Source: an uncultured Acidobacteriota bacterium (GTDB lineage: Bacteria; Acidobacteriota; Vicinamibacteria; Vicinamibacterales; CAVVIG01). From it: 64,000 nt of DNA. Position 1 is the first letter of the stretch. Every line of letters begins with the position of its first letter. The notes below the pieces were generated by a model. It was not told the origin of the DNA, did not search any database, and was given only the letters and a program-made list of their open reading frames with translations. Position numbers and translations under genes: made by a program. The stretch lies in NCBI GenBank assembly GCA_963821285.1, contig CAWGDD010000009.1, positions 2,431 through 66,430 on the forward strand, in the 5' to 3' direction. This document shows positions 2,777 through 63,984 of this stretch, piece after piece.

Positions 2777-2839
2777 GACGGCCGACTGCCGACTGCCGAC
2801 TGCCGACTGCCGACTGCTGACTGCTGACTGTTGACTGAG
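2777..2839 (+). repeat. Heptamer tandem array, about 9 x GACTGCC (degenerating to GACTGCT/GACTGTT)
   Basis: Read directly. It starts 1 nt after the stop codon at 2776 and ends 7 nt before the ATG at 2846. Confidence 0.95.
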
Positions 2840-2845
2840 ACGCGT

Positions 2846-3868
2846 ATGTTAAATGCGGCGATGGTGGGACTGGGCTGGTGGGGGAAGACGCTGGTGGAGT
2901 CGGTGCAGGGCACCAGCGCGGACCTGCAGTTCGTGGCGGGCGTGGCGCGGACGCACACCGCCGAGCAGACGGCGTTTGCGACGGCGCAGGGGTTCACGCT
3001 GTACCACACCTACGAGGAGGCGCTGGCGGACTCGCGCGTCCAGGCCGTGGTGCTGGCGACGCCGCATTCGCTGCATAGTCCGCAGGTCATCGCGGCCGCG
3101 CAGGCCGGCAAGCACGTCTTCTGCGAGAAGCCGTTCGCGCTGACGAAGGCCGACGCGGTGGCCGCGGTCGCCGCCACGCAGGCCGCCAAGGTCACGCTGG
3201 GACTCGGCTACAACCGACGGTTTCACCCGGAGATGACCACGCTCCGGCAGCAGGTCCGCCGCGGCGAGTTGGGCACGATCCTCCACATCGAAGCGACGAT
3301 GACGTTTCCGAACGGGCTGTTTCTGAAGCCCGATGCGTGGCGGGCGGCGAAGGACGAAACGCCCTGCGGCGCGCTGACGCCGATGGGCGTCCACGCCATC
3401 GACGGGATGATCGACCTGTGCGGCCCGATCGCCCAGGTCTACTGCCAGAGCTTCCGGCGGGTGGTGGCGGTGGACAGCGACGACACGACGTCGATGCTGT
3501 TCCGGATGGCGGACGGGATGTCGGGGTATCTGGGCACGATGACGGCGACGGGCCCGGGGTTCAGTTTTCAGGTGTTCGGGTCGGCGGGGTCGGTGCGGCT
3601 CGAAGGCATGACGCACGTGGCGGGGGCCTCCTCGGAGGAGCGCCGGACGCGGCTGTTCGGGACGTGCAAGTTTCAACCGATCAAGGGCGCGGCGACCGTC
3701 TGGGAGGCCGCGCGGCTCGACGTCACCCGGGCGTGCCTCGAGGCGTTCGCGCAGGCCGCCGCCGGCGGCGCGCCCTTCCCCATTCCGCTCGACCAGATGA
3801 TTCACGGCGCGGCCGTGACCGAGGCGGTCGTCCGCTCGGCGGCCTCGGGCCAGGTAGAAAAGGTGTAG
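2846..3868 (+). CDS. Gfo/Idh/MocA family NAD(P)-dependent oxidoreductase
   Basis: N-terminal Rossmann MLNAAMVGLGWWGKT. Also EKPFALT, typical of the family. The ATG at 2846 is chosen over the TTG at 2831, which lies inside the repeat. Confidence 0.85.
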   Translation: MLNAAMVGLGWWGKTLVESVQGTSADLQFVAGVARTHTAEQTAFATAQGFTLYHTYEEALADSRVQAVVLATPHSLHSPQVIAAAQAGKHVFCEKPFALTKADAVAAVAATQAAKVTLGLGYNRRFHPEMTTLRQQVRRGELGTILHIEATMTFPNGLFLKPDAWRAAKDETPCGALTPMGVHAIDGMIDLCGPIAQVYCQSFRRVVAVDSDDTTSMLFRMADGMSGYLGTMTATGPGFSFQVFGSAGSVRLEGMTHVAGASSEERRTRLFGTCKFQPIKGAATVWEAARLDVTRACLEAFAQAAAGGAPFPIPLDQMIHGAAVTEAVVRSAASGQVEKV

Positions 3869-3875
3869 ACGCGAC

Positions 3876-5075
3876 ATGAATCTCGGCAACGGCCTCGGCC
3901 ATCTGACGTACTCGACCCTCGTGCATCCCGCTGACAACTGGGATCAGCTGTGGTCGAGCGTGCAGACATATCTGCCGAAGGTGAAGGCGCGCATCTCGCC
4001 AGACCAGCCGTTCGGCGTGTGTCTGCGTCTCGCGGCCCCGACCGCGGAAGTCCTCGCCGCCAATGCTGACGAGCGCAAGAAGCTGAAATGGTTTCTGGCC
4101 GACAACGACATGTACGTCTACACGGCCAACGCCTTCCCGTACGGCGCGTTCAAAGGGACCGTCGTCAAGGAGCAGGTGTACGAGCCCGATTGGCGGACCG
4201 AAGAGCGCACCGCCTACACGATCAACGTCGCTGACATCCTCGCCGATCTCTGCGTCGACGGGATTTCGCCCTCGATCCAGACCGCCCCGCTCGGCTTCAA
4301 GCCGAACGTCACCGGCCCGGACGTCGTGGACAGCTACACGGAGCATGTCCTCCGCGTGGCCGCGCACCTGGTCGGGATCGAAGCCCGTACCGGACATCTG
4401 ATCACGCTCGGCCTCGAGCCGGAACCGCGCTGCTTCCTCGAGACCACGGACGAGACGGTCGCGTACTTCACGAACCATCTCTACACCGGCAAGTCCGCCG
4501 CGCGCCTCGCCAAACTCGCGGGCATCCCGATGGACACGGCCATCGCCGCGCTCCGCCGCCACCTGGGCGTCGTCTTCGACATCGGCCACCAGTCGGTCGG
4601 TTTCGAAGACATCCCGGTGTCGCTGCAGAAGCTCGTCGACGCCGGCATCCCGATCGTCAAGCTCCAGGAAGCCGCGGCGATGTATATCGGCGAGGTGACG
4701 GACGAAAAGGTCGAGGCCCTCAAGCGCTTCGCCAAGACCGTGTATCTGTCGCAAACCGTCGAGTGCCGGGGCGGCGCGGAGCTCGGGCACTACCTGAACC
4801 TCGAAGACGCGTTCGCCGGCTGGGAGACAGACAAGACCAAGCGCGAGTGGCGCACGCACTTCCACGTGCCGGTCTTCCTGACCGACCTTGGGCCGTTCAA
4901 GTCGACGCAGTTTGCGCTCGAGCAGGCGCTCGCCATGCACAAGAAAACCCCCCTCAGCCGTCAGCTCGAGATCGAAACCTACACGTGGGACGTCCTCCCC
5001 GACCACCTCAAGACCGGCGACATCGTCGAGTACGTCTGCCGCGAGCTGGAGTGGGTGAAGGGACAACTGACGTAG
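3876..5075 (+). CDS. Xylose-isomerase-like TIM-barrel protein, EboE-like
   Basis: 399 aa. N-terminus LGHLTYSTLVHPADNW...FGVCLRLAAPTAEVL resembles my recollection of the EboE (metabolite traffic protein) family. No other ebo genes are nearby. Confidence 0.55.
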   Translation: MNLGNGLGHLTYSTLVHPADNWDQLWSSVQTYLPKVKARISPDQPFGVCLRLAAPTAEVLAANADERKKLKWFLADNDMYVYTANAFPYGAFKGTVVKEQVYEPDWRTEERTAYTINVADILADLCVDGISPSIQTAPLGFKPNVTGPDVVDSYTEHVLRVAAHLVGIEARTGHLITLGLEPEPRCFLETTDETVAYFTNHLYTGKSAARLAKLAGIPMDTAIAALRRHLGVVFDIGHQSVGFEDIPVSLQKLVDAGIPIVKLQEAAAMYIGEVTDEKVEALKRFAKTVYLSQTVECRGGAELGHYLNLEDAFAGWETDKTKREWRTHFHVPVFLTDLGPFKSTQFALEQALAMHKKTPLSRQLEIETYTWDVLPDHLKTGDIVEYVCRELEWVKGQLT

Positions 5076-5113
5076 TCAGCAGTCAGCAGTCAGCAGTCGG
5101 CAGTTGGCAGTCG
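5072..5113 (+). repeat. Heptamer tandem array, about 6 x GCAGTCR (reverse complement of the 2777 array unit)
   Basis: Read directly. It overlaps the stop codon of the 3876-5075 CDS. Confidence 0.95.
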
Positions 5114-5117: not shown

Positions 5118-5135
5118 GCAGGCCTTTAGGCCTGC
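5118..5135. repeat. REP-like GC hairpin GCAGGCC-TTTA-GGCCTGC
   Basis: Perfect 7-bp stem. Same design at 9781-9798 and 46877-46894. Related GCGGGCC/GGCCCGC hairpins at 25366-25411 and 46901-46918. Confidence 0.85.
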
Positions 5136-5143
5136 CGGAACAC

Positions 5144-6298
5144 ATGAAACGAAGCACCGATCGCATCCTGACGACGCACGTGGGAAGTATCGTGCGGCCG
5201 CCGGCGCTGCGTGAGCTCTCGGCGGCCTCATCGAAAGATGACACGAGCCAGGAACGGTACGAGACGGGCTTGATGCAGCTCGTCGCGGATGTGGTCGAGT
5301 CTCAGGCGACCGCCGGCCTCGACATCGTCAACGACGGCGAGTTCGGGAAATCGAGCTGGTCAAATTACGTCCTGGCGCGGCTGACAGGATTCGAACCGCG
5401 TCCCGACCGGCTGGCCCCCGCCACGTGGCTCGGCCGCGATCGCGTGCGATTTGCGGAGTTCATGGCCAGCGAGTTTCCGCGCGGGCTGAAGGGCGCGCCC
5501 GCCGACGCCTGCGTCGGACCGATCGGCTACAAGGACCACGACAGCATTCGCCGTGACGCGGCCAACCTGAAGGCCGCCCTCGCCAGGGTCAAGGTCGAGG
5601 AAGGCTTTCTCACGACCGTCGCGCCGGCGAGCGTCGGCTACGACACGTTCCAGGAGTACTACACGAGCGAGCGCGACTACGTCTTCGCCATCGCCAGTGC
5701 GCTGCGCGAAGAGTATCTCGCCGTCTACAACGCCGGCCTCGTGCTGCAGGTGGACGATGCCGTGCTGGCGAACATGTACGACGAGCTCGTGCAGCAGAGC
5801 CCCGCGCATTACCGGCGATGGGCCGAGCTGCGCGTGGAAGCCCTCAATTACGCCCTGGCCGGGATTCCCGAAGACCGCGTCCGGTATCACATCTGCTTCG
5901 GCAGCTGGCATGTCCCGCACGTGGCGGACGCGCCGCTCGAGGCCGTCGTGGATCTCGTCCTCCAGGTCAACGCCGGCGCGTACCTGATCGAAGCCGCCAA
6001 TGTCCGGCACGAACACGAGTGGCGCGTCTGGGAGAAGGTCAAGCTGCCGGCGGGCAAGATTCTCATGCCGGGGGTGGTGACCCATCACACGACGACCGTC
6101 GAGCACCCCCGGCTGGTCGCTGACCGCATCGTCCGGTTCGCGAAGCTCGTCGGACGGGAGAACGTCGTCGCGTCGACCGATTGCGGCTTCGCCCAGGTCG
6201 AGACCCTCGCACGGGTGCACCCGCAGGTGATGTGGGCGAAGTTCGAGAGCCTGGCCGAGGGCGCGCGGCTGGCCTCGGCCGAGCTCTGGGGCCGGTAG
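5144..6298 (+). CDS. Second MetE-C-terminal-like (Meth_synt_2) Zn-dependent alkyltransferase family protein
   Basis: 384 aa. N-terminus ILTTHVGSIVRPP. Ligand pattern H-x-C (YHICFGSWH), E (YLIEAAN), C (STDCGFA). Confidence 0.8.
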   Translation: MKRSTDRILTTHVGSIVRPPALRELSAASSKDDTSQERYETGLMQLVADVVESQATAGLDIVNDGEFGKSSWSNYVLARLTGFEPRPDRLAPATWLGRDRVRFAEFMASEFPRGLKGAPADACVGPIGYKDHDSIRRDAANLKAALARVKVEEGFLTTVAPASVGYDTFQEYYTSERDYVFAIASALREEYLAVYNAGLVLQVDDAVLANMYDELVQQSPAHYRRWAELRVEALNYALAGIPEDRVRYHICFGSWHVPHVADAPLEAVVDLVLQVNAGAYLIEAANVRHEHEWRVWEKVKLPAGKILMPGVVTHHTTTVEHPRLVADRIVRFAKLVGRENVVASTDCGFAQVETLARVHPQVMWAKFESLAEGARLASAELWGR

Positions 6299-9743: not shown

Positions 9744-9798
9744 AGGCCTGCCCCTTTCTTAGAGGAGCAGGCCCCGTTTCGGCAGGCCTGAGGGCCTG
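9744..9798. repeat. Two REP-like GC hairpins (GGCCTGC...GCAGGCC and GCAGGCC-TGAG-GGCCTGC)
   Basis: Read directly, between convergent genes. Confidence 0.8.
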
Positions 9799-9804
9799 CA
9801 GTCT

Positions 9805-9846
9805 ACTTCTGACTTCTAACTTCTAACTTCTAACTTCCAAGTTCTG
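9805..9846 (+). repeat. Heptamer tandem array, 6 x ACTTCTA
   Basis: Read directly. It is the complement of the AGTTAGA arrays at 21173 and 61612. Confidence 0.95.
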
Positions 9847-16408: not shown

Positions 16409-16492
16409 GCAAAGGGCAGAGGGCAAAAGGCAAAGGGGAAGAGTTCCCTTTGCCCTTCCCTTTGCCCTCTGCCCTTTGCCTTCTGCCCTTCT
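16409..16492. repeat. Inverted pair of heptamer arrays (AGGGCAR x4 / CTTTGCC-type x5) forming a long imperfect hairpin
   Basis: Left arm 16409-16443 and right arm 16446-16492 are largely complementary. It fills the gap between convergent genes. Confidence 0.9.
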
Positions 16493-17631: not shown

Positions 17632-18510
17632 GTGTCACGGATTCTCATCGCCGCTACCGTTACGCTCGCCGCCAGTTTCTCGCCGAACCTGCTGGCGCAA
17701 TGGCCGCGTCAGATCGTCTCGAACGTGCCGAGAACGGCGGACGGCAAGGTCAACCTCGACGCACCGGTGCCGAAGACCGCTGACGGCAAGCCCGATCTTT
17801 CGGGCGTCTGGGAAACCGTTCCGTGCCGTGGCTGCGGCGTGCCGGTGATCTCGGGCCTTGGTTCGGCCCCGCCGCAGGGACGCGGCGGCGCGCCCGCGCC
17901 TCCGCCCGCGCCGGCGCCGAACCCCGGCGCCAACGTCTTCGGCAACATCGGCGGCCAGACCCAGGGCGGCGCTCCGTATCAGCCGTGGGCCGACGAGCTG
18001 GTGAAGAAGCGGATGGCGGACAACAGCAAGGACAACCCCGATGCGCATTGCCTGCCGATGGGCATCATGCAGCTCAATTCGCATCCGTTTCCCCGGAAGA
18101 TCATCCAGACCGCTTCGGAGATCGTGATCATTTACGAGGGATCCGGCACGACTGTCCGCGAGATCTTCACGGACGGCCGCGCGCTGCCCGGCAAGGATGC
18201 CGAGCCCTGGTGGAACGGCTACTCGGTCGGCCACTGGGAAGGCGACACGCTGGTCGTCGAGACCACGAACTTCATGGACGACGGCTGGCTCGACGTGCGG
18301 GGGAGTCCGCTCACCAGCGAAGGCAAGATGATCGAGCGCTTTCGCCGTACGAGCTACGGGAACCTCGAGCTGACCGTGACGATCGACGACAAGAAGGCCT
18401 ACACGAGGCCGTTTTCCGCGGTCATTCACAACCGAATCGCTCCCGATCTGCAGCTGAGCGAGTTCGTGTGCATAGACAAGGATGCCGGCCACTACGTCGG
18501 AGGGAAGTAG
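17632..18510 (+). CDS. Secreted protein of unknown function, paralog of 16493-17545
   Basis: GGGAGG lies 8 nt before the GTG at 17632. Signal peptide VSRILIAATVTLAASFSPNLLAQ. Motif GHWEGDTLVVETTNF. Confidence 0.6.
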   Translation: MSRILIAATVTLAASFSPNLLAQWPRQIVSNVPRTADGKVNLDAPVPKTADGKPDLSGVWETVPCRGCGVPVISGLGSAPPQGRGGAPAPPPAPAPNPGANVFGNIGGQTQGGAPYQPWADELVKKRMADNSKDNPDAHCLPMGIMQLNSHPFPRKIIQTASEIVIIYEGSGTTVREIFTDGRALPGKDAEPWWNGYSVGHWEGDTLVVETTNFMDDGWLDVRGSPLTSEGKMIERFRRTSYGNLELTVTIDDKKAYTRPFSAVIHNRIAPDLQLSEFVCIDKDAGHYVGGK

Positions 18511-18546
18511 GGCAGGCGGGGCGGGCAAGGCGGGCAGGTCGGGCTG
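18511..18546 (+). repeat. 9-mer tandem array, 4 x GGCGGGCAG-like
   Basis: Read directly. It starts at the nt after the stop codon at 18510, between convergent genes. Confidence 0.9.
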
Positions 18547-19959: not shown

Positions 19960-19981
19960 GGGGCATCATACACACAAGCGG

Positions 19982-20006
19982 ATTGAAATTTCAATAATTA
20001 TTGAAA
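19982..20006. promoter_or_regulatory. AT-rich overlapping palindromes (TTGAAATTTCAA; perfect 18-mer TTTCAATAATTATTGAAA), candidate operator of the GbsR/MarR-type gene
   Basis: The perfect palindrome at 19989-20006 lies 30 nt upstream of the start at 19959. The local AT-richness is striking in a 67% GC context. Confidence 0.5.
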
Positions 20007-20037
20007 CTTATACAATATGACCGGCGGGGCACTCATG

Positions 20038-20127
20038 CGGGCGGGTCGGGCCTGACGGGCGGGCCGGGCAGGGCTGGCGGGTCAGGGGTCGGGCGGGTCG
20101 GGCGAGGCAGGCGGGTCGGGCAGGCTT
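20038..20127 (+). repeat. 9-mer tandem array, about 10 x GGGCGGGTC/GGGCAGGGC-like
   Basis: Read directly. It lies downstream of tRNA-Leu. Confidence 0.85.
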
Positions 20128-20206
20128 GCCGAGCCGAGGCTTGCTCCTACGGGTCCTTGCGTGGCTGGCTTGCCAGCCGAAGCTCACGCTCAGCGTCAGC
20201 GCGCGT

Positions 20207-20295
20207 GAGCGAAGGCTGGTGCCGGAGGAGGGAATCGAACCCTCACGGGGGGTGACCCCCACGGGATTTTGAGTCCCGCGCGTCTGCCAGTTTCA
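20207..20295 (-). tRNA. tRNA-Leu (anticodon CAA), class II with long variable arm, CCA encoded
   Basis: Reverse complement GCCGGAG...CGGGA-CTCAAAA-TCCCG...GAGGGTTCGATTCCCTC-CTCCGGC-A-CCA. Acceptor, anticodon and T arms pair correctly. Confidence 0.95.
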
Positions 20296-20495
20296 CCACT
20301 CCGGCCGGAAGTGGGGGAGTCCTGCAGTATACCGCCCAACTTCGCCTTACTGAGCCACTTAGCTCACCACTTGCGCCGATTGACGGCTGCGCAGACCGGG
20401 GCGTCTGCGCCCAATATCCGTTCGTTCGGCGACTTCTCTTTGCAACCTTTCACCAGGCAAAACTGCGAAAACGCCCATGTTTTCGGCCCTTTCTC

Positions 20496-20524: not shown

Positions 20525-20584
20525 TTAGAAGGCTGCCGGGACGCTGTCCAGCCTTCCATACAGCACTTCCAGTCAGGGGGAACC

Positions 20585-21172
20585 GTGACATTTGAGGTCG
20601 GAGACAAGGTCATTTACCCGAACCATGGTCTCGGGATCGTCGAACGCATCGAAGAGAAGACCATTCTCGGCACTACCTGCGGTTTCTATCACCTTCGTAT
20701 CGTCGCCAACGAAACCATCGTGCTCGTTCCCATCGCCAACGTCGACGGCGTCGGCCTCCGCCGCGCTATCAGCGATATGGAAGTCGAACGCCTGTTCGGC
20801 CTGCTCGGCGATGGCAAGATCGACAACCATCAGAACTGGAAGGGGCGCTTCAAGGACAACTCCGACAAGATGCGCAGCGGCTCGATCTACGACGTGGCCG
20901 ATGTGCTCAAGAGCCTGACGTTCCTGGCCAAATCCAAGAGCCTGTCGTTCCGCGAAAAGCGCATGCTCGACCGCGCCAAGTTCCTCGTGGTCTCCGAAGT
21001 CTCCGAAGTGATGCGCGAAACGGCGCCCGCCATCGAAGCGCAGGTCGACCGCGCCCTCGAGCGCTGCTTTTCGACCAAGGCGCGGACCATGGCCCGCGCG
21101 AAGGTCGTGAAGGTGGCCCCGCGCGTCGCGGCCCCGGCCGCGGCTCCCCGGCGCGCCGCACGCGCTAGCTGA
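20585..21172 (+). CDS. carD: CarD-family (CdnL) RNA-polymerase-binding transcriptional regulator
   Basis: FEVGDKVIYPNHGLGIVERIEEK...YHLRI...VLVP, followed by a helical C-terminal domain. GTG start follows GGGGAACC. Confidence 0.9.
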   Translation: MTFEVGDKVIYPNHGLGIVERIEEKTILGTTCGFYHLRIVANETIVLVPIANVDGVGLRRAISDMEVERLFGLLGDGKIDNHQNWKGRFKDNSDKMRSGSIYDVADVLKSLTFLAKSKSLSFREKRMLDRAKFLVVSEVSEVMRETAPAIEAQVDRALERCFSTKARTMARAKVVKVAPRVAAPAAAPRRAARAS

Positions 21173-21207
21173 ACTTAGAAGTTAGAAGTTAGAAGTTAGA
21201 AGTTAGA
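21173..21207 (+). repeat. Heptamer tandem array, 5 x AGTTAGA
   Basis: Starts at the nt after the carD stop codon. Confidence 0.95.
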
Positions 21208-21209
21208 AC

Positions 21210-21248
21210 GCCCGCTGTGGCACCAACCGCAGCGGGCGTTTTTCATTT
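21210..21248 (+). terminator. Intrinsic terminator after carD
   Basis: 10-bp stem CCCGCTGTGG / CCGCAGCGGG (one G-U pair), loop CACCAA, then CGTTTTTCATTTT. Confidence 0.8.
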
Positions 21249-21255: not shown

Positions 21256-21296
21256 ACCTGCCGACTGCCGACTGCGGACTGCCGACTGCCACTGCT
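21256..21296 (+). repeat. Heptamer tandem array, about 6 x GACTGCC
   Basis: Read directly, between the carD terminator and the plsC-like start. Confidence 0.9.
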
Positions 21297-24164: not shown

Positions 24165-24206
24165 GGTTCAGGGTTCAGGGTTCAGGGTTCAAGGTTCAGG
24201 GTTCAC
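24165..24206 (+). repeat. Heptamer tandem array, 6 x GGTTCAG
   Basis: Read directly, between convergent genes. It is the complement of the array at 42224. Confidence 0.95.
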
Positions 24207-28119: not shown

Positions 28120-28630
<511 letters not shown>

Positions 28631-28635
28631 GAACG

Positions 28636-29490
28636 ATGAAGCCGCTGTGTCTCGCGCTGGGTCTATTTGCGGTTCTTGTATTCCCCGGCCTGCCAAGCCC
28701 GGCCCGCCCGCCCGGCCTGCCCGTTCCGGCCGTCTCCGCCCAAGTCCCGGCCGTGCCTCCATCGTCATCCCGCGCGCCGGTGTGGGGCTATCAGATCATC
28801 CGAGCGTATCCCCACGACGCCGAGGCGTTCACGCAGGGTCTCGAATACGTCGACGGCTTCTTCTACGAAGGTACCGGCCTGAACGGCCGATCGTCCATCC
28901 GCAAGGTGAAGCTCGAGACGGGCGATGTGGTGCAGCGGCGCGCGGTCGGTGCGGAGCACTTCGGCGAGGGCATCACCGTCTGGAACGACACGCTGGTCGA
29001 GCTCACCTGGCAGTCGCAGGTGGCGCTCGTCTACGATCGGCGGACGTTTCAGCCGCTCCGCACCTTCTCGTACTCCGGCGAAGGATGGGGGCTGACGCAC
29101 GACGCGGCGAACCTGATCATGAGCGACGGCACGGCCGCGCTGAGGTTCCTCGACCCGGCCACGTTTCGCGAGCGCCGCCGCGTGACGGTGACCGATGCCG
29201 GCGTGCCCGTGACGGCGCTGAACGAGCTGGAGTTGGTGAAGGGCGAGGTGTGGGCCAACGTGTGGACCACGGACTTCATCGCCCGCGTGGACCCTGTGAC
29301 GGGGCGCGTGGCCGGCTGGATCGATTTGCGAGGCCTGCTGCCCGCCCGCGAGCGCGCCGGCGACGCCGTGCTGAACGGGATCGCGTACGACGCCGCCAAC
29401 GACCGTCTCTTCGTGACCGGCAAACTCTGGCCGCGCCTGTTCGAGATCAAGGTCGTCAGTCGACAGTCAGCAGTCGGCAGTCGGCAGTAA
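28636..29490 (+). CDS. Glutaminyl-peptide cyclotransferase (bacterial/plant-type glutamine cyclotransferase)
   Basis: YQIIRAYPHDAEAFTQGLEYVDGFFYEGTGLNGRSSIRKVKLETG, NELE...GEVWANVW, NGIAYD. The C-terminal SRQSAVGSRQ comes from a heptamer array. Confidence 0.85.
   Translation: MKPLCLALGLFAVLVFPGLPSPARPPGLPVPAVSAQVPAVPPSSSRAPVWGYQIIRAYPHDAEAFTQGLEYVDGFFYEGTGLNGRSSIRKVKLETGDVVQRRAVGAEHFGEGITVWNDTLVELTWQSQVALVYDRRTFQPLRTFSYSGEGWGLTHDAANLIMSDGTAALRFLDPATFRERRRVTVTDAGVPVTALNELELVKGEVWANVWTTDFIARVDPVTGRVAGWIDLRGLLPARERAGDAVLNGIAYDAANDRLFVTGKLWPRLFEIKVVSRQSAVGSRQ
28685..28729 (+). repeat. 9-mer tandem array, 5 x CCGGCCTGC/CCCGCCCGC (complement orientation of 28581 array), inside the 5' coding region of the cyclotransferase gene
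   Basis: Read directly. It encodes PGLPSPARPPGLPVP just after the signal-peptide hydrophobic core. Confidence 0.85.
29457..29490 (+). repeat. Heptamer tandem array, about 5 x CAGTCGG, containing the stop codon of the cyclotransferase gene
   Basis: Read directly. Confidence 0.9.
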
Positions 29491-29502: not shown

Positions 29503-29523
29503 AACCTCTAACCTCTAACCTCT
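29503..29523 (+). repeat. Heptamer tandem array, 3 x AACCTCT
   Basis: Read directly. It abuts the lepB stop codon at 29525-29527. Confidence 0.85.
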
Positions 29524-29524
29524 A

Positions 29525-32701: not shown

Positions 32702-32728
32702 GGCAGGCAAGGCAGGCAGGGCAGGCGA
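32702..32728 (+). repeat. 9-mer tandem array, 3 x GGCAGGCAR
   Basis: Starts 2 nt after the nuoI stop. Degenerate complementary copies (CGCCTGCCC) occur at 32763-32796. Confidence 0.85.
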
Positions 32729-32762
32729 AAACCGATGATCGCTTCGTCAGAACTGCCCGGCT

Positions 32763-32796
32763 CGCCTGCCCGCGCCAGTTCTGTCCGCCTGCCCCG
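32763..32796 (+). repeat. Degenerate complementary 9-mer copies (2 x CGCCTGCCC)
   Basis: CGCCTGCCC at 32763-32771 and 32786-32794. Together with 32702-32728 this gives an inverted arrangement. Confidence 0.6.
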
Positions 32797-41323: not shown

Positions 41324-41467
41324 TAGTCAGCAGTCAGCAGTCGGCAGTCGGCAGTCGGCAGTCGGCAGTCGGCAGTCGGCAGTCGGCAGTCGGCAGTCGG
41401 CAGTCGGCAGTCGGCAGTCAGCAGTCGGCAGTGGCAGTCGGCAGTCAGCAGTCGCAGTCAGCAGTCG
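41324..41467 (+). repeat. Heptamer tandem array, about 20 x GCAGTCG (a few 6-nt variants)
   Basis: Read directly. This is the longest array in the window. It starts about 20 nt upstream of the lon ATG. Confidence 0.95.
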
Positions 41468-42223: not shown

Positions 42224-42279
42224 AGAACCTTGAACCTTGAACCCTGAACCCTGAACCCGGAACCTTGAACCCGGAACCT
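42224..42279 (+). repeat. Heptamer tandem array, 8 x TGAACCY/GGAACCT
   Basis: Read directly. It fills the divergent gap between the start at 42220 (minus) and the ATG at 42298 (plus). Confidence 0.95.
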
Positions 42280-42297
42280 TGTATTGTAGAACCTGCC

Positions 42298-43583: not shown

Positions 43584-43690
43584 TTTAGTCATCTGGTCAT
43601 CTCGTCATCTGGTCTTCGTTTTGAAATTGCCCAGATTTCAAAATTGATCAGCAATGACCAGATGACCAGAATGACCGAGATGACCAGATG
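43584..43690. repeat. Composite palindromic element, copy A: 8-mer array (GTCATCTG x3), AT-rich palindromic core (TTTTGAAATT...AGATTTCAAAATT), inverted 8-mer array (CAGATGAC-type x4)
   Basis: Homologous to 63879-63984. The right end contains the ATG (43688) of the downstream gene. Confidence 0.9.
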
Positions 43691-45409: not shown

Positions 45410-46872
45410 ATGCCTTCGCCGACCGCCCGCACACCTCTGCCTTCCTCCGAGCCGCGGCGCTGGGTTCGCGCAATCGACGCGCTCTGCCTCGCGCTGGTGG
45501 TGCTGAGCGCCCTCGTCGCGATGTCGGGCGGTTTCCGCGTGCGCCTCGGCCCGCTGCGCGTGGCCGTCACGTCGCCGTACTCGACGCTGCTGTGGGCGTT
45601 CGTCGATCGCGATCGTCCGGCACGTCCTGGCACCGGCGGCGCCGATCTACCGCGACCTGCCGGCGCGGCTGGCCGCGTGGTGGCATCAGCCCGGCGTGCA
45701 CACCGCCGCGATCGTGACGGCGGGGACGCGCCCGGCGATCCTGTTTGTCGGCTACATGGCCGTGCTCGTGTTCGGCTACCCGCCGGGGCCGGCGCCGCCG
45801 GTGCAGATCAACAACGAGCTGGTGAACCTGCAGGCGCGGTGGGACGCCAACTGGTATCTCGGCATCGTGACCGAGGGCTACCACTTCGTGCCGGAACCAG
45901 CCGGGCCTTCAGCAGAGCATCGCCTTCTTCCCGGCCTACCCGCTGCTCGTGCGCGGCGTCGGCCGCATTCTGGGCGGACGGCTGACGAGCTACATCGGCG
46001 CGGGTATGCTCGTCTCGTTCGCGGCGTTTTTCGGGGCGCTCATCTACCTCTACGCGCTGGCGCGCGACACGCTCGAAGAAGACCAGGCGCGCTTCGCGGT
46101 CTGGGCGATGGCGACGTACCCGTTCGCGCTGTTCTTCGGCGCGATCTACGTCGAACCGCTGCTGCTGCTCGGGATGACCGCGACGTTCTACCACTTCACG
46201 CACGGACGGTTCGCGCGCGCCGCGGCCTGGGGTGTGCTGGTTGGTCTGACGAAGACGAACGGGTTTCTGCTCTCGATCCCGCTCGCGATGCTCGCGATCC
46301 AGGTCGGACGCGCGGGGCAGGCCGGGCAGGTCGGGCAGGTCGGGCAGGCCGGGCAGGGCGGGCAGGGCAAGAACGTCGTCACGGCGCTGGCCGCGGCGGC
46401 GATGCCTGGCCTGGGCATGCTCATCTACTCCGCTTACGTCTGGCAGCTGACCGGGGATCCGCTGGGGTGGCTCAGGGCGCACGGCGCGTGGGGCCGGGAG
46501 TATCAGGGGCTCGTGACGCTCGTGGGCGACCGGCTGAACATCATCGCGAACGCCGGCATCGAGGGCTACGTCGCGTCGCTTCCGTACGACCTCATCAACG
46601 CGCTCGGTGCGATCTTCGTGCTGGCCGCGGTCTGGCCGGTGGCCCGCAAGCTCGGTCTGGCCTACGCGGTGTTCATCCTCGTCTTCATGCTGCCGCCGCT
46701 GGCGGCCGGCGGCCTCATCTCGGCCGGGCGCTTCTCGTCCGTGTTGTTCCCCGCGTTCCTCTGGCTGGCCGGTCTGGTGCCGCCGAAACATCGCCCGGCA
46801 TGGCTCGCTTCATTCGCGGCCTTTCAGGCGCTGAACGCGGCCATGTTCTACACCTGGCGCCCGCTGTACTAG
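45410..46872 (+). pseudogene. PIG-V-like/GT-C-type membrane mannosyltransferase, two frameshifts (about 45600-45606 and 45895-45905)
   Basis: Segments MPSPTART...YSTLLWAF (frame 2), IAIVRHVLAPAAPIYRDLP...WDANWYLGIVTEGYHFVPEP (frame 3), and QQSIAFFPAYPLLVRG...to the end (frame 1). Confidence 0.6.
46312..46365 (+). repeat. 9-mer tandem array, 6 x G(G/C/T)CGGGCAG, in frame inside the glycosyltransferase gene
   Basis: Encodes AGQAGQVGQVGQAGQGGQ between two predicted TM segments. Confidence 0.9.
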
Positions 46873-46876
46873 CAGT

Positions 46877-46918
46877 GCAGGCCTTCAGGCCTGCGTGCAG
46901 GCGGGCCTAAAGGCCCGC
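46877..46918. repeat. Two REP-like GC hairpins (GCAGGCC-TTCA-GGCCTGC; GCGGGCC-TAAA-GGCCCGC)
   Basis: Read directly, 5 nt after the stop at 46872. Confidence 0.85.
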
Positions 46919-46948
46919 ACTACTTCAGGTTGTCCATCGCAGCGCGGA

Positions 46949-52221: not shown

Positions 52222-52280
52222 ACCACGAAGATCACGAAGCCCACAAAGCTATCCTTGGTGGTCTTTGTGTGCTTTGTGGT
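52222..52280. repeat. Inverted pair of 9-mer arrays (ACCACGAAG ATCACGAAG CCCACAAAG / CTTGGTGGT CTTTGTGTG CTTTGTGGT)
   Basis: Read directly. Imperfect hairpin with G-U pairs. It fills the DUF58 to BatA-like junction. Confidence 0.9.
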
Positions 52281-54179: not shown

Positions 54180-54214
54180 AATCAGCAATTAGCAATCAGC
54201 AATCAGCAATTGAA
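54180..54214 (+). repeat. Heptamer tandem array, 5 x AATCAGC/AATTAGC
   Basis: Read directly. It fills the gap between the stop at 54178 and the ATG at 54216. Confidence 0.95.
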
Positions 54215-59553: not shown

Positions 59554-60506
59554 CGCTCGTCCGGTGCGCGCTCGCGCTGGCCGCCGTCTGTCTGGCCTCA
59601 CCGGCTGCGGCCGGCGACAACTACGCCCTTGTCGTCACGGGCGCATCAGGCGGCGACGTGTACGCGAAGAAGTACGACGGCTGGCGCCGGTCGTTCGTCT
59701 CGGCCCTTCGCGACAAGTTCGCGTATCCCGCCGATCACGTGATCGCCCTGGCCGAGAAAGAGGAGCCTGGCGTCGGGCCGGCCACGCGGACACAGGTGCA
59801 GCGGGTATTGACGGACCTGCGCACCCGTCTCACGCGGGACGATCTGCTCGTCGTCCTGCTCATCGGGCATGGCACGTTGACGGACCATGCCGACGCCAAG
59901 TTCAACCTGGTGGGTCCCGACCTGAGCGCGAGCGAGTGGGCGGACCTGCTGAAACCCATCACCGCCCGCCTTGTCTTCGTCGACACGACGTCGGTCAGCT
60001 TCCCGTTCATGGCGAAACTCGCGGCTCCCGGCCGTGTCGTGGTGACGGCGACGGATTCGACCGCGCAGGAATTCGAAACGATCTTCGCCGAGTGGTTCGT
60101 CAAGGCGCTGACCGAAATGGCCGCCGACGCCGACAAGAACGGCCGCGTGTCGATGCTCGAGGCGTTCACGTATGCCAGCGCGGCCGTGCGCCGCTGGTAC
60201 GACGAGCACAACCAGCTCCCGACCGAACGTCCGCTGATCGACGACGATGGCGACGGCGTGGGGCGGGAAGCGCAGAATCAGGGGGCCGACGGGTCGCTGG
60301 CGCGCGGAACGTATCTCCAGGTTGCCGGTGAGCCTGTCGATGCGCCGCGGCGGGCGCTGGCCGCGCGTCAGGCCGCGCTCGAAGCGCAAGTCGACGCGCT
60401 CAAGGCGAGGCGATCGTCGATGGCGTCCGAAGCGTATCAGGCAGAGCTCGAACGTCTCCTCCTCGACCTGGCTCGCATTTCTGCTGAACTCCGGTCCAAG
60501 TCCTGA
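59550..60506 (+). CDS. Secreted caspase/legumain-fold (peptidase C13-like) protein with C-terminal coiled coil
   Basis: Signal peptide. NYALVVTGASGG, LLVVLLIGHGT (His-Gly dyad), and LVFVDTTSVSF where the catalytic Cys would be expected. ATGA overlap with the upstream stop. Confidence 0.5.
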   Translation: MTLVRCALALAAVCLASPAAAGDNYALVVTGASGGDVYAKKYDGWRRSFVSALRDKFAYPADHVIALAEKEEPGVGPATRTQVQRVLTDLRTRLTRDDLLVVLLIGHGTLTDHADAKFNLVGPDLSASEWADLLKPITARLVFVDTTSVSFPFMAKLAAPGRVVVTATDSTAQEFETIFAEWFVKALTEMAADADKNGRVSMLEAFTYASAAVRRWYDEHNQLPTERPLIDDDGDGVGREAQNQGADGSLARGTYLQVAGEPVDAPRRALAARQAALEAQVDALKARRSSMASEAYQAELERLLLDLARISAELRSKS

Positions 60507-60536: not shown

Positions 60537-60938
60537 GTGCCCACCCTGGTCGATGCGAACGTATTGCTCGACTCTCTCGACGAGGGCAGCGAGTGGGAAG
60601 ATTGGTCAGCGTCCATGATCGCGTCGGCGAGCGAGACTGGTGTCCTCGTCATCAATCCGATCATTTACGCAGAGGTATCCGTCGGATTTCGATCGATTGA
60701 CGACCTTGATGACGCGCTGCCTCCGGAATACTTCACGAGGGCGCCACTGCCATGGGAGGCGGGCTTTCTCGCCGGCAAGGTGTTCGAGCAGTACCGACGG
60801 CGAGGCGGAGCGAAGCGTTCCCCCCTGCCGGACTTCTACATCGGCGCGCACGCCGCAGTGACCGGAATGACCCTTCTCACTCGCGACGCCCGTCGCTACC
60901 GTGCGTACTTTCCGAAGCTCCGGATCATCGCGCCCTAG
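60537..60938 (+). CDS. vapC: PIN-domain ribonuclease, VapC-type toxin
   Basis: LVDANVLL (Asp1), YAEV (Glu), PDFYIGAHA (Asp), LLTRDARRY (Asp). 133 aa, GTG start. Confidence 0.8.
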   Translation: MPTLVDANVLLDSLDEGSEWEDWSASMIASASETGVLVINPIIYAEVSVGFRSIDDLDDALPPEYFTRAPLPWEAGFLAGKVFEQYRRRGGAKRSPLPDFYIGAHAAVTGMTLLTRDARRYRAYFPKLRIIAP

Positions 60939-61597: not shown

Positions 61598-61611
61598 TGG
61601 GATAGCTTACA

Positions 61612-61696
61612 ACTTAGAAGTTAGAACTTAGAAAGTTAGAACCTAGAAGTCCTGGTTCCTAGTTCTTACTTCTTACTTCTCAGTTCTAACTTCTAA
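61612..61696. repeat. Inverted pair of heptamer arrays (ACTTAGA/AGTTAGA x5 ; TTCTTAC/TTCTAAC x6) forming a hairpin
   Basis: Read directly. The right arm overlaps the stop codon region of the 61693-62928 gene. Confidence 0.9.
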
Positions 61697-62928
61697 ACCC
61701 CGTGTCCGTACCCCACATGCTCGACGTGATGTCCACCGTTGGCATCGTCGGGCGCCGCGGGGCCGCTCCCGCGCAGCCGCTCGACGATGCGCCGAAGATC
61801 GCCGTCGCCGACGATCTTGCGGTGCTCGCCGAACGAAATGACGGCGCGATACACCTGGTCGATCTCGCCCGCGGCGACGTGCAGGCCGAGCGCGTCGCAG
61901 CGCCGTTGAACCGCGTGCCGGCCGGAGTGCCGGCCGAGGACCAGCTGCTCGGGCTCCTGGCCGACGTCCTGCGGCCGCATGATCTCGTAGGTGCGCGCGT
62001 CCTTCAGCACGCCGTCCTGGTGAATGCCCGCTTCGTGGGCGAAGGCGTTGCGTCCGACGATGGCCTTGTTGGCCTGCACCGGTTCGTTGGCGAGCTTCGC
62101 GAGCAGCTGGCTCGTCTCGAAGAGCAGGGGCGACTGGATCCCCGTCTCGAACGGCAGCCGGTCCTTCCGCACGCGCATCGCCATCACGACTTCTTCGAGC
62201 GCCGCGTTGCCGGCCCGTTCGCCGATACCGTTGATCGCGACCTCGACCTGACGGGCGCCGCCGGCGATCGCGGCCAGGCTGTTGGCGACGGCCAGGCCCA
62301 GATCGTCGTGGCAGTGTGCGCTGAAGACGGCCTTGTCGGAGTTGGGAACACGCCGGATGATCTCGGCGAAGAATTCCTGCGTCTCGTCCGGCGTCGTGTA
62401 CCCGACCGTGTCAGGCAGATTGATCGTCGTTGCGCCGGCCGCGATCGCCGCCTCGACGACGCGGCACAGGAAGTCGTGGTCGCTTCGCGTCGCGTCCTCC
62501 GCCGAGAACTCGACGTCGTCGGTGAACTGCCGGGCGCGGCGGACGCCGTCGACGACGGCCGTCAGGCAGGCCTCGCGCGTGATGCGCAGCTTGCGCTCGA
62601 GATGCAGGTCGGACGTCGCCAGGAACGTGTGAATGCGGCGGCGGGCGGCCGGCGCGAGGGCGCGGGCGGCTTCGTCGATGTCCAGGGGCCGGCATCGGGC
62701 CAGGGCGGCAATCACCGGCCGGCGGACCTCTTTGGCGATCTGGGTGACGGCTTCGGCGTCGGCCGGCGACGCGATGGGAAAGCCGGCTTCGATGATGTCC
62801 ACGCCCAGCGCGTCGAGAGCCCGCGCCATCTGCACCTTGGCCGGGACCTCGAGCGAGAAGCCGGGGGCCTGCTCGCCGTCCCGCAGGGTGGTATCGAAGA
62901 TCACGACCCGTGCGGATTCAGTAGCCAT
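61693..62928 (-). CDS. 2-isopropylmalate synthase / homocitrate synthase family protein (short form without LeuA regulatory domain)
   Basis: VVIFDTTLRDGEQAPG, HCHDDLGLAVANSLAA, GIGERAGNAALEE. 411 aa. Confidence 0.85.
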   Translation of the reverse strand: MATESARVVIFDTTLRDGEQAPGFSLEVPAKVQMARALDALGVDIIEAGFPIASPADAEAVTQIAKEVRRPVIAALARCRPLDIDEAARALAPAARRRIHTFLATSDLHLERKLRITREACLTAVVDGVRRARQFTDDVEFSAEDATRSDHDFLCRVVEAAIAAGATTINLPDTVGYTTPDETQEFFAEIIRRVPNSDKAVFSAHCHDDLGLAVANSLAAIAGGARQVEVAINGIGERAGNAALEEVVMAMRVRKDRLPFETGIQSPLLFETSQLLAKLANEPVQANKAIVGRNAFAHEAGIHQDGVLKDARTYEIMRPQDVGQEPEQLVLGRHSGRHAVQRRCDALGLHVAAGEIDQVYRAVISFGEHRKIVGDGDLRRIVERLRGSGPAAPDDANGGHHVEHVGYGHGV

Positions 62929-62999
62929 GGACCTGAGTGTGCGCGCCCGGCAGATTAGAAGTCAAAGTGATAATCATTACGATACAATAAGCGCAATTT

Positions 63000-63953
63000 A
63001 TGGACATCGCCGCCCTGAAGACCTTCCTGGCCGTCGCCCAGGAGCGAAGTTTCTCGCGCGCCGCGGCCAAGGTTCACCGCACGCAGCCCGCGGTGAGCCA
63101 GGCGGTGCGGCGGCTCGAAGAGGATCTCGGTGAGCAGTTGTTCGATCGCTCCTCGAAGACGGGCACCCTCACCGATGCCGGGAAGGTGCTCCAGAACTAC
63201 GGGCAGCGTCTCGTGCGGCTTGCCGAGGAGGCGGAGTCGGCGATGCGTGAACTCCGCGACCTGCGCCGCGGCCGCGTGCTGATCGGCGCCAACGAAGCCG
63301 CCGTCCACACGCTGCTGCCACTCATCGGGCGGTTCCGGCGGGGTTTCCCCGATATCGCGATCGACGTCCGCCGTGTCCCGGCCCGGCAAATCGCGGTCGA
63401 AGTCCAGCAGGGGAGCCTCGACTTCGGCGCCCTGACATTTCACCCCACGGAAGAAGGCCTCCTCGAGGTCCCGGTCGGCAGCGACGAGCTCGTGCTGCTC
63501 GTCTCACCCTCGCACGAGCTGGCCGGGCGCCGTCAGGTCACCATGGCGGAGCTGGCGGGGCATCCCGTGGTGGCCCACAACGATCCGTCGCCCGCGCGGG
63601 AACGCGTCCTTCGCCTCTTCGAGGAGCACCACATCACGCTCAACATGGTGATCGCGTTGCCGAGCCTCGACGGTATCAAGCGCGCGGTCGAACTCAACCT
63701 CGGTGTGGCGCTGCTGCCCAGACGCTGCGCGATCACCGAGATCGCGAGCAAGCGGCTCGTGGCGGTGCAGGTGACGGGTGTGTCGCGCAAACGCCAGGTC
63801 ACGCTGGTGTGTCGCAGGGCGCACCGGTCGCATGCGTCGGACGCGTTCCTGAAAGTGGCCCAGGAGCACTCGCACAACCATTTAGTCATCTGGTCATTTG
63901 GTCATCTGGTCATCGTTTTGGAATTCTCAGATTTCACAATTTCCAAACGATGA
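63000..63953 (+). CDS. LysR-family transcriptional regulator
   Basis: MDIAALKTFLAVAQERSFSRAAAKVHRTQPAVSQAVRRLEEDLGEQLFDR. The last about 25 aa (HNHLVIWSFGHLVIVLEFSDFTISKR) are encoded by the composite repeat element. Confidence 0.9.
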   Translation: MDIAALKTFLAVAQERSFSRAAAKVHRTQPAVSQAVRRLEEDLGEQLFDRSSKTGTLTDAGKVLQNYGQRLVRLAEEAESAMRELRDLRRGRVLIGANEAAVHTLLPLIGRFRRGFPDIAIDVRRVPARQIAVEVQQGSLDFGALTFHPTEEGLLEVPVGSDELVLLVSPSHELAGRRQVTMAELAGHPVVAHNDPSPARERVLRLFEEHHITLNMVIALPSLDGIKRAVELNLGVALLPRRCAITEIASKRLVAVQVTGVSRKRQVTLVCRRAHRSHASDAFLKVAQEHSHNHLVIWSFGHLVIVLEFSDFTISKR

Positions 63954-63984
63954 CCAGATGACCAGATGACTAAATGACCAGATT
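63879..63984. repeat. Composite palindromic element, copy B (8-mer arrays flanking the core TTTTGGAATTCTCAGATTTCACAATTTCCAAA)
   Basis: Same architecture and largely the same sequence as 43584-43690. Confidence 0.9.

Follow-up and report, generated by a model that had tools for sequence, protein, structure and literature searches.

Tandem-repeat arrays of many heptanucleotide-class units behind gene ends in a Vicinamibacterales genome and its relatives

The stretch of DNA considered here, referred to throughout as the window, comprises 64,000 nucleotides of contig CAWGDD010000009.1 from an uncultured Acidobacteriota bacterium of the order Vicinamibacterales. Among the genes that it carries are carD, moaC and lon, together with those for a glutaminyl cyclase, an acyltransferase, a ketoacyl synthase, a LysR protein and tRNA-Leu(caa), and the gaps between its genes harbor a large number of tandem-repeat arrays with units of 7, 8 or 9 nt. 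These arrays exceed chance expectation, are biased towards gene ends, are frequently paired as inverted copies, fall into genome-specific families and persist at orthologous sites in related species while their units turn over. They are almost certainly heptanucleotide-class long simple-sequence repeats (SSRs), of the same broad kind as the short tandemly repeated repetitive sequences (STRRs) of cyanobacteria, and are native to the Vicinamibacterales. What is new is thus a lineage for a known class of repeat, with an unusually high diversity of units.

The arrays of the window

Arrays were called with Tandem Repeats Finder (TRF), with the chance level taken from 30 dinucleotide shuffles, and the gene map was built from GC3/GC1/GC2 frame statistics in combination with Pfam. 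At a TRF score of at least 40 the window contains 22 arrays of period 7, 8, 9 or 14, compared to a shuffle mean of 1.2 (maximum 5). The same periodicity is seen without TRF: the autocorrelation of the intergenic gaps reaches 0.36, 0.36, 0.33 and 0.32 at lags of 7, 14, 21 and 28, over a baseline of about 0.255. The arrays, and the terminator that lies between two of them, are as follows, where z refers to the folding of the corresponding RNA and REP to repetitive extragenic palindromic sequences.

2777..2837, plus strand: single array (GACTGCC)n(GACTGCT)m of about 8 copies, called by TRF, with no structure as RNA (z = -1.2); it takes up all 54 nt between a Meth_synt_2 gene's stop and the next start.
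5074..5112, minus strand: single array of the GACTGCC family reversed (AGCAGTC/GGCAGTC), overlapping a stop codon (5073-5075), with a REP-like hairpin after it; z = -3.6.
9805..9845, minus strand: single ACTTCTA array (AGAAGTT family; AGTTAGA family) between convergent genes, of which one, for a TonB-type outer-membrane protein, has its stop 6 nt away; minimum free energy 0 kcal/mol.
16409..16490, unstranded: GCAAAGG/CCCTTTG inverted pair forming a hairpin of about 35 bp between convergent genes; -55.3 kcal/mol, z = -6.7.
18511..18546, plus strand: array of the G-tract 9-mer GGCGGGCAN with a G-quadruplex motif, in a convergent gap, called by TRF at 18520.
20037..20125, plus strand: tandem array of a G-tract 9-mer (about 9.6 copies) on the downstream side of tRNA-Leu(caa), beyond its 3' end.
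21171..21208, plus strand: single array (AGTTAGA)5, filling the carD 3' untranslated region (UTR) from the stop to the intrinsic terminator.
21205..21242, plus strand: the carD intrinsic terminator (not a repeat), a 16-bp GC-rich stem with a T-run, flanked by arrays on both sides and conserved in relatives.
21258..21295, plus strand: single CTGCCGA array (GACTGCC family) from the terminator T-run to a TATCAT box, upstream of the acyltransferase gene.
24165..24205, plus strand: single array (GGTTCAG)6 in a convergent gap; z = -2.1.
28580..28723, unstranded: G-rich/C-rich 9-mer inverted pair across the MoaC/cyclase junction (-103.5 kcal/mol, z = -5.8), called by TRF at 28580 and 28684; the left arm encodes the MoaC tail RAGRAG... 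and the right arm the residues after the cyclase signal peptide.
29452..29488, minus strand: GACTGCC-family heptamer array that codes for the 11 C-terminal residues of the glutaminyl cyclase.
29503..29524, plus strand: (AACCTCT)3, abutting the stop of a minus-strand signal peptidase gene.
32702..32796, unstranded: tandem 9-mer GGCAGGCAA at 32702-32726, with a degenerate partner in inverted orientation, between co-directional genes; z = -2.6.
41325..41467, minus strand: GACTGCC array of 20.7 copies, the longest of all, from a degraded ICMT-like gene to lon; z = -7.3. It belongs to the 5' leader of lon, the start of which (41304) is about 20 nt downstream of the array's end.
42225..42281, minus strand: GAACCYT array (GGTTCAG family) between divergent genes and upstream of the start of the ketoacyl synthase (42298).
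43588..43690, unstranded: palindromic element with inverted arrays of the 8-mer GTCATCTG around a small inner palindrome, in a co-directional gap; -52.6 kcal/mol, z = -7.5.
46300..46366, plus strand: in-frame 9-mer GGGCAGGYC array encoding (AGQ)n inside a membrane-protein gene, with a G-quadruplex motif.
52222..52280, unstranded: inverted pair of three imperfect ACCACGAAG-like 9-mers directly after a stop codon; -29.9 kcal/mol, z = -5.0.
54180..54210, plus strand: single array (AATCAGC)4.4 filling a 31-nt co-directional gap, unstructured (z = -0.07).
61607..61694, unstranded: inverted pair of the AGTTAGA family, from a rhomboid gene start to the stop of an HMGL-like gene; z = -2.3.
63885..63983, unstranded: second GTCATCTG 8-mer palindromic element (-59.3 kcal/mol, z = -10.1); its left arm and loop encode the last 27 LysR residues, and its loop is related to that of the copy at 43588.

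An earlier reading of the letters alone, referred to here as the sequence-only reading, had listed most of these sites, and TRF agrees with its positions at all except 52222-52280. This site falls below the TRF threshold, although three imperfect 9-mers and an inverted copy can be read there directly and fold well. Only 32702-32726 is truly tandem within the region 32702-32796, the remainder being the degenerate partner. Furthermore, three of the arrays listed as lying in gene-end gaps belong elsewhere: 46300-46366 is intragenic and in frame, and the arrays at 41325 and 42225 are on the 5' side of lon and the ketoacyl synthase, respectively.

The 9-mers are GGGY-type G-tract repeats, with G-quadruplex motifs at 18502-18543, 20039-20102, 28581-28610 and 46314-46367, and they represent a somewhat separate class. 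They survive in frame inside genes, as in (AGQ)n and the (RAG)n of MoaC, because nine is a multiple of three. The units are AT-richer than their surroundings, with a GC content of 51-54% in comparison to about 66% for the genome, and as single words the heptamers have ordinary counts, with no over-representation of singletons. A scan of the whole window with Rfam 15 at the gathering threshold returned tRNA-Leu as its sole match, and no curated RNA family at the arrays.

The arrays are found predominantly behind stop codons. Of the 29 gaps of at least 30 nt in the window, 16 contain an array, close to the 17 of 29 estimated from the letters: five of six convergent gaps and 10 of 16 co-directional gaps, against one of seven divergent gaps, where 42225..42281 is the sole example (gene-end versus divergent gaps, Fisher p = 0.026). 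The sequence-only reading had the arrays typically starting within 0-2 nt of a stop codon. This is the case for those at 2777, 5074, 18511, 21171, 32702, 52222, 54180 and 61694, which lie 0-1 nt from a stop or overlap it, whereas the others lie 5-12 nt away. Its proposal that several arrays supply C-terminal tails was borne out for three proteins, and in each the tail lies beyond the end of the Pfam domain: residue 273 of 284 in the cyclase, whose tail ends in FEIKVVSRQSAVGSRQ; residue 151 of 173 in MoaC; and residue 290 of 317 in the LysR protein, whose tail ends in HLVIWSFGHLVIVLEFSDFTISKR. In practical terms, gene callers applied to these genomes would add spurious array-encoded C-terminal tails and over-extend N-termini, and short-read assemblies would break or collapse at arrays. 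The idea that the units serve as stop codons in all frames was discarded, as GACTGCC, GCCTCAA and GCAAGTC hold no stop triplet.

That both orientations occur had been noted from the letters, but this understates the matter, as seven sites in the window are inverted hairpin pairs of one and the same unit. Folded as RNA, five of the seven reach z = -5 to -10, with weaker values for the pairs at 61598 (z = -2.3) and 32701 (z = -2.6). Unpaired arrays mostly have a z near 0 and no structure; exceptions are the GGCAGTC orientation, which self-pairs through G-U pairs at 41325 and 5074, and also the array at 24160. The array hairpins of the window lack a convincing T-run and so do not qualify as intrinsic terminators: those at 43588 and 63885, read directly, have no T-run after them, and a scanner match inside the 16404 pair is only the tip of the stem followed by a weak T tail. 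Between 15000 and 34000 the scanner reported 12 terminator-like sites, in comparison to 9.0 +/- 3.1 in shuffles, and a long GC-rich stem only at carD.

The arms of the pair at 28580-28723 bracket the MoaC stop together with the start and signal-peptide codons of the glutaminyl cyclase. The stem would hold the downstream translation start in its loop, an arrangement kept in two related loci, L001 and L002, and possibly connected with translational coupling or regulation.

Arrays in related genomes

Relatives were collected by scanning the CarD protein of the window against one genome per GTDB species, which gave the 80 closest loci (the best 96% and 94% identical), and by scanning the neighboring acyltransferase against metagenome contigs, which gave 80 further loci and a total of 160, labelled here with L numbers. 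Nearly all of the 80 CarD loci carry the label of Vicinamibacterales, Vicinamibacteria or Acidobacteriota metagenome-assembled genomes, the titles of L020, L028 and L033 being labelled otherwise, in keeping with the Acidobacteriota-type host suggested from the letters. The assemblies stem from many projects, both short-read and long-read, and include megahit, SPAdes, long-read and JGI metagenome contigs.

The related loci and the window together amount to 1.83 Mb, in which the TRF counts are 149 for period 7, 68 for period 8 and 90 for period 9. By comparison, periods 5, 6 and 10 are represented by only 2, 4 and 7 arrays, period 2 by one, and periods 1, 3 and 4 by none. The dominance of period 7 whatever the unit, already remarked on in the sequence-only reading, is thus apparent both in this spectrum and in the lag-7 autocorrelation. 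Among the related loci, arrays of period 7 and 8 are mostly non-coding while those of periods 9, 12 and 15 are mostly within genes: 74 period-7 arrays are non-coding and 21 lie within called open reading frames (ORFs), against 11 and 72 for period 12. The 21 appear mostly to reflect over-extended ORF starts, of which 47 were re-trimmed. An equal density of arrays within and between genes with no link to stop codons, which the sequence-only reading had named, for a genome-wide analysis, as evidence against its view, is not what is observed in these loci.

For the first 80 loci and the window, the density of arrays of period 7, 8, 14 or 16 is 2.94 per kb where gaps are convergent, 1.68 where they are co-directional and 0.44 where they are divergent (chi-square p = 9e-11), roughly proportional to the number of gene ends and in line with the earlier remark that promoter gaps are mostly free of arrays. 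In co-directional gaps, 29 of 75 arrays start no more than 5 nt from the upstream stop, and arrays in convergent gaps lie a median of 5 nt from whichever stop is nearer. Start codons in these loci are approximate, taken from the longest ORFs and re-trimmed at arrays, and this biases against rather than for the association with stop codons.

Pairing is equally widespread. Among 123 intergenic arrays of period 7-9 with at least three copies, 65 (53%) have an array of the reverse-complement unit within 200 nt, and only three have a separate direct partner. The loops of these pairs in the relatives measure 5-99 nt and are unique in most heptamer pairs, and some enclose an intrinsic terminator (L010, L022, L029). 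Two nested palindromes, at 8970-9148 of L057 and 6733-6878 of L072, consist of an outer heptamer pair around an inner pair or array of a different unit, which suggests outward growth, layer by layer.

Two loci, L001 and L002, share the gene order of the window, with a DNA identity of 85-89%, and allow its gaps to be compared directly. Those at 16404, 18511, 21173, 24154, 28560-28740 and 29440-29524 each contain an array or hairpin at the same place in one or both of these relatives, with copy numbers, and often units too, that differ from those of the window. Thus, the 16404 gap of L002 has a hairpin pair of CACAGAGG-like units instead of GCAAAGG, and the 18511 gap has a 9-mer array in L001 and a REP-like hairpin in L002 (at about 6230-6250 of that locus). 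The site at 24165 corresponds to an array of about three copies in L001 and a degenerate one in L002, the inverted 9-mer pair at 28580 is conserved with variation in both, the 29452 site has orthologous arrays of different copy number, and at 29503 both relatives have AACCTCY and CCCCAGC arrays. In a separate gap, at 19960-20216 and next to tRNA-Leu(caa) (20217-20305, minus strand), where the window has the G-rich 9-mer array of 20037, the flanks are syntenic but the intervening DNA is longer than in the window by about 2 kb (L002) or about 7.5 kb (L001); this looks like a tRNA-associated integration hot spot.

The carD 3' UTR provides the broadest view of this turnover. In 128 loci a conserved terminator follows the carD stop codon after a spacer with a median length of 36 nt. 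Across the 126 spacers of at least 21 nt, identity is 0.425 at lag 7 and 0.386 at lag 14, and about 0.25 at other lags; 21 spacers are at least 60% self-identical at lag 7 and none at other lags, with a null expectation of 0.05 per set. More than 12 different units are involved, in both orientations, including GCCTCAA, AGTTAGA, AACCCTG, GCAAGTC, AAGTCTC, AACTTAG, CACCACG, GAATTAG, GAACGTA, CAATTTA and AATCATC, and L090 has the unit of the window reversed. Between L081/L083, L082 and the window, CarD is 98% identical and the terminators are nearly so, but the arrays are very different. The array therefore evolves much faster than its flanks, while the 7-nt period is kept.

The closest relatives recovered have 93% (acyltransferase) and 98% (CarD) protein identity; exact-protein look-ups of three window proteins found no record, and a search of metagenome contigs with an exact flank pattern around a variable gap gave no match. 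Polymorphism in copy number is therefore documented between species only.

Some further features of the carD region may be mentioned here. The start of its longest ORF (20477-21172) is probably too far upstream, since the relatives start at a conserved VTFEVGDKVIYPNHG (GTGACATT...), preceded by a conserved GGGGGAAyCGTG; with a start further downstream, the gap between the tRNA and carD would exceed 171 nt. Most relatives have a TTTATGATG/TTTATCATC box directly after the T-run of the carD terminator, whereas the window has its CTGCCGA array between T-run and TATCAT box (21243-21308), which would displace or rebuild the upstream part of the acyltransferase promoter. Arrays after the carD terminator are also present in L084, L085, L010 and L047.

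The unit sequences had been described as unrelated, and this is only partly true. Several are one substitution apart, such as GACTGCC-AGTCAGC-AATCAGC and ACTTCTA-AACCTCT in the window, and the 57 distinct heptamers of the data set share 58 one-step links, in comparison to 30 +/- 5 for random heptamers of matched composition. Forty-four of the 57 form one connected component (null mean 12, maximum 31). Families are also genome-specific. Among arrays more than 400 nt apart, the unit family is identical in 10% of pairs within a genome and in 0.73% of pairs between genomes, and units within one substitution account for 17.3% and 4.5%, respectively, a difference that none of 500 label permutations reached. 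In the window, four of the five GACTGCC arrays are ordered as (GACTGCC)n followed by (GACTGCT)m, and the AGTTAGA arrays at 9805, 21171 and 61607 start with an AACTT variant unit. Recurrence within a genome, together with this shared internal order, points to either the copying of array segments between sites or genome-specific selection on the unit.

Genomes also differ in the period that they favor. L025, L029 and L042 have 17 8-mer arrays, of several different units, to two 7-mer arrays (p = 6e-8, with arrays within one genome not being independent), whereas other genomes (L078, L071, L002 and L003) have only 7-mers, 11 to none in the case of L078. On a tree of CarD and acyltransferase, L029 and L042 do not form one clade; L025 is not placed.

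Comparable repeat systems

The sequence-only reading took the STRRs of heterocystous cyanobacteria as the closest described phenomenon. These are said to have been described by Mazel and colleagues in 1990 from Calothrix and Nostoc, reportedly as several tandem heptamers per genome, mostly intergenic. STRR families are genome-specific, have been used for strain fingerprinting and occur in low-GC hosts; the units of STRR1-3 are CCCCAGT, TTGGTCA and CAACAGT. When these were compared by eye with the unit list of the window, allowing for rotation and reverse complement, no match was seen. The hosts also belong to a different phylum, the loci found here being nearly all from Vicinamibacterales or other Acidobacteriota rather than from heterocystous cyanobacteria.

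The STRRs are, however, part of a broader class. As reported in PMC4679880 and PMC4692102, heptanucleotides are the commonest class of long SSR in many large high-GC genomes, typically of non-pathogens, and are proposed to originate from slippage (Mrazek et al. 2007), which makes the phenomenon less unprecedented than was first thought. The length of 7 nt has been tied in these accounts to polymerase geometry, with repeats of 1-3 nt being suppressed (PMC4679880, PMC4692102; Huang and Mrazek 2014, PMC4060949). Long SSRs with units of 5-11 nt resemble the arrays of the window in that heptanucleotides are the most abundant and units that are not multiples of three stay out of coding DNA. Each feature of the class is found here: tandem units of 5-11 nt beyond chance, a modal period of 7 with units of 1-4 nt being rare, intergenic location of units that are not multiples of three, and copy numbers that differ at one locus among related genomes, between species only. 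The 2007 survey did not cover the Vicinamibacterales, for which there were then no genomes, nor, as far as the later summaries show, inverted pairing or unit turnover at orthologous sites.

The closest system is not the STRRs but the GGGAATC arrays of Xanthomonas campestris and X. axonopodis (Rehm et al. 2015, PMC4692102, where the cyanobacterial STRRs are also mentioned). These arrays are 89-93% intergenic, next to or overlapping the upstream stop, with 7-8% between divergent genes; around 70 inverted pairs per genome can form stem-loops; and 83% are conserved in position between species but differ in length, with the single or paired type preserved and both strands used equally. In location, inverted pairing, conservation of position and strand use, the arrays of the window and its relatives match this description. 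They are alike but are not members, since Xanthomonas has essentially one G-rich, G-quadruplex-forming unit, whereas the window has at least five heptamer clusters as well as 8-mer and 9-mer families, most of them not G-rich, and the Vicinamibacterales lineage has more than 60 units. In contrast to the G-quadruplex heptamers of Xanthomonas and Nostoc (GGGNATC/GGGGAYT), the heptamers of the window lack a G3 tract, and only its 9-mers correspond; G3-type units such as GGGGATT, GGGATTT and GGGTAATC do occur in relatives (L008, L078 and L025). Few inverted pairs are reported for the Nostoc GGGGAYT arrays (PMC4692102).

The TAACTGA repeats of marine Beggiatoaceae, some cyanobacteria and Bacteroidetes (MacGregor 2015, PMC4679880) are likewise intergenic tandem heptamers whose singleton unit is not over-represented, and in Microcystis and Flavobacteria they are mixed with other heptamers. 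They are, however, found mainly directly upstream of starts, in the forward orientation and in 2-6 copies, whereas the arrays of the window lie behind stops without a bias in orientation. A 2025 survey has noted only an enrichment of short tandem repeats of 6-9 bp in some prokaryotic phyla (PMC12699852), and the searchable literature holds no description of such arrays in Acidobacteria or Vicinamibacterales, as the sequence-only reading had supposed.

REP sequences, the bacterial interspersed mosaic elements (BIMEs) and the REP doublets forming hairpins (REPINs) share the extragenic gene-end location, the inverted hairpin doublets and the genome-specific families. They are, though, conserved imperfect palindromes of 20-40 nt mobilized by the REP-associated tyrosine transposase (RAYT) (e.g. 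Bertels and Rainey 2011, PMC3116915), whereas the arms in the window are tandem arrays of variable copy number and many units. True REP-like hairpins coexist with the arrays, and one replaces an array at an orthologous site. They are GC-rich, of the form (G)TGCAGGCCTnnAGGCCTGC(A) or GCAGGCCTnnAGGCCTGC, and are found singly or doubled at gene ends (5118-5137, 9783-9803, 25364-25411 and 46875-46920). A second palindromic family, CCAGCCGAAGCTC...GAGCGAAGGCTGG, is present at 20170-20216 and also downstream of carD in L017.

Origin, possible roles and neighboring features

The arrays would arise, and be remodeled, through slipped-strand mispairing during replication. Mismatch repair is cited in PMC4060949 as correcting loops of 1-3 nt efficiently and longer loops poorly, and loops of 7-9 nt would evade it, such that arrays of very short units are purged while those of longer units persist. 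Repeated expansion and contraction would homogenize each array as point mutations cause its unit to drift, and it would follow from this that the period is kept and the sequence is not. Segments of arrays may be copied to new genomic sites by template switching or ectopic conversion, giving rise to genome-specific families, and intrastrand template switching across a nearby hairpin may mirror an array to form inverted pairs and nested palindromes. Selection is envisaged to clear arrays from coding sequence and promoters, leaving them to build up in the free DNA behind stop codons. There, unpaired arrays could act as 3'-UTR spacers, paired arrays could act as REP/BIME-like 3' hairpins that possibly stabilize or delimit transcripts, and some arrays would be translated as dispensable C-terminal tails. 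We regard this scheme as a whole, comprising class, slippage with template switching, and tolerance at gene 3' ends, as the probable explanation, though by no overwhelming degree, and the case for its mechanistic details is about evenly balanced.

Several points weigh against it. Local slippage alone does not explain why units recur within a genome (10% versus 0.73%), nor the (GACTGCC)n(GACTGCT)m order shared by four of five arrays, and the copying step invoked here is hypothetical. The model offers no reason for the preference of 7 over 5, 6 or 10. That so many species have retained an array at the carD site, against the deletion bias of bacteria, could reflect selection rather than tolerance, and the polymorphism in copy number is confined to comparisons between species. 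Finally, strong hairpins flank 35% of unpaired arrays in comparison to 20% of controls (p = 0.011), a weak effect with an imperfect control, whereas the medians of the flanking hairpins equal those of controls.

In another view the arrays are selected cis-elements, acting as periodic platforms for a protein with a footprint of around 7 nt that recognizes the period and the local composition and not the exact sequence. Candidates would be a nucleoid protein on DNA or, on RNA or single-stranded DNA, a protein with a cold-shock domain, and the arrays would then tune 3'-end formation, mRNA stability or the insulation of neighboring genes. The conservation of period rather than sequence in the 126 carD spacers agrees with this, as do the retention of arrays in the same gaps between species, the exchange of the 16404 hairpin pair for a pair of another unit in L002 and the scarcity of canonical terminators between 15000 and 34000; the binding of heptamer repeats by CspB, at one protein per heptamer, has moreover been discussed (PMC4679880). 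On the other hand, when unpaired arrays are read on the strand that is sense for the upstream gene, their A/T, G/C and purine contents show no significant bias, which argues against rut sites and other sense-strand RNA roles, and hairpins are not more stable on the sense strand (9 versus 6 of 15 co-directional pairs, p = 0.39, with low power). The lack of strand asymmetry in both respects points, within this limited power, to a process at the level of DNA. Both orientations occur at one orthologous site (L090 and the window), a single genome combines units of 7, 8 and 9 nt, many relatives without an array in the carD spacer still keep the terminator, and no candidate protein has been identified. 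The cis-element view is a possible but minority explanation. DNA bending was rejected as a role, the 7-bp period being out of phase with the helical repeat.

[quoted passage not shown] Unpaired arrays would be half-elements left after deletion, and dispersal by a transposase would produce the genome-specific families. The 8-mer palindromic element does behave more like a dispersed element: its loop is common within a genome, its arms alone are common between genomes, the two GTCATCTG elements of the window share arms and related loops, and two copies of this type in L025 share the same arms around a loop of their own, with the arm sequence also found in L029, L022 and L008. The 53% of arrays in inverted pairs, the recurrence of families at distant sites with shared internal polarity and the gene-end location typical of REP, BIME and MITE sequences would all be accommodated. 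Against this, the GACTGCC, AGTTAGA and GGTTCAG arrays of the window share no flanking or internal non-repeat sequence, the loops of most heptamer pairs are unique, and the gradual drift of units at orthologous sites fits descent in place. There is also no evident target-site duplication at 43576-43700 or 63879-63990, where repetitive ends blur the boundaries, and no transposase or RAYT gene among the proteins scanned in the 64 kb.

Less likely again is an active, sequence-independent, period-setting process in the Vicinamibacterales that installs, copies and maintains the arrays, with nested hairpins taking the place of canonical terminators. The candidate trans-acting factor would be a specialized activity of polymerase or primase type, or else a protein whose footprint is 7 nt, and the genome-specific families with shared polarity and the genomes that prefer 8-mers would be its signatures. 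For the questions of why heptamers dominate, how genome-specific families spread and whether they have any function, which date back to the discovery of the cyanobacterial repeats and the 2007 survey, the Vicinamibacterales constitute an unusually rich natural experiment, with dozens of units, periods of 7, 8 and 9, and both single and hairpin-paired forms. In the carD 3' UTR, followed across more than 100 species-level lineages, period and sequence can be told apart more cleanly than in Xanthomonas with its single unit.

It is highly improbable that the arrays act as contingency loci, in which hypermutable copy number switches genes or alters proteins as in phase variation. Copy number does differ at one site between related species, heptamer arrays overlap three ORF ends, where a change of one unit would alter the C-terminal tail, and an array of 20.7 copies lies in the lon 5' leader, with another upstream of the ketoacyl-synthase promoter. 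Yet arrays are depleted in divergent promoter gaps (0.44 versus 2.94 per kb in convergent gaps), which sets them outside this class, and those that are not multiples of three are excluded from gene bodies. The genes affected are housekeeping genes (carD, moaC and lon) rather than surface or restriction genes, and the coding overlaps are at 3' tails, beyond the ends of the Pfam domains. As for an assembly or sequencing artefact, two window regions without a consistent reading frame hint at indel errors and tandem repeats are known to be error-prone, but this is effectively excluded because arrays are present at orthologous positions in independent assemblies (megahit, SPAdes, long-read and JGI), whose lack of them the sequence-only reading had said would count against it, and because their placement respects stop codons and terminators.

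The two frameless regions are 41545-42219 (minus strand) and 44834-45948 (plus strand), of about 0.7 and 1.1 kb, which have no consistent coding frame by GC3. Part of the second, at 44836-45378, codes for a methyltransferase of the ICMT family, or rather for its C-terminal half (E = 6e-20), while the minus-strand stretch gives weak ICMT/PEMT matches and lies between the two array anomalies of largest scale, those at 41325 and 42225. These stretches may be either degraded paralogues or the result of indel errors in a long-read assembly. Elsewhere in the window, a gene at 60537-60938 (plus strand), 30 nt after the ORF at 59469-60506, encodes a PIN-domain protein (E = 1e-9) that may be the toxin half of a VapBC-like pair.

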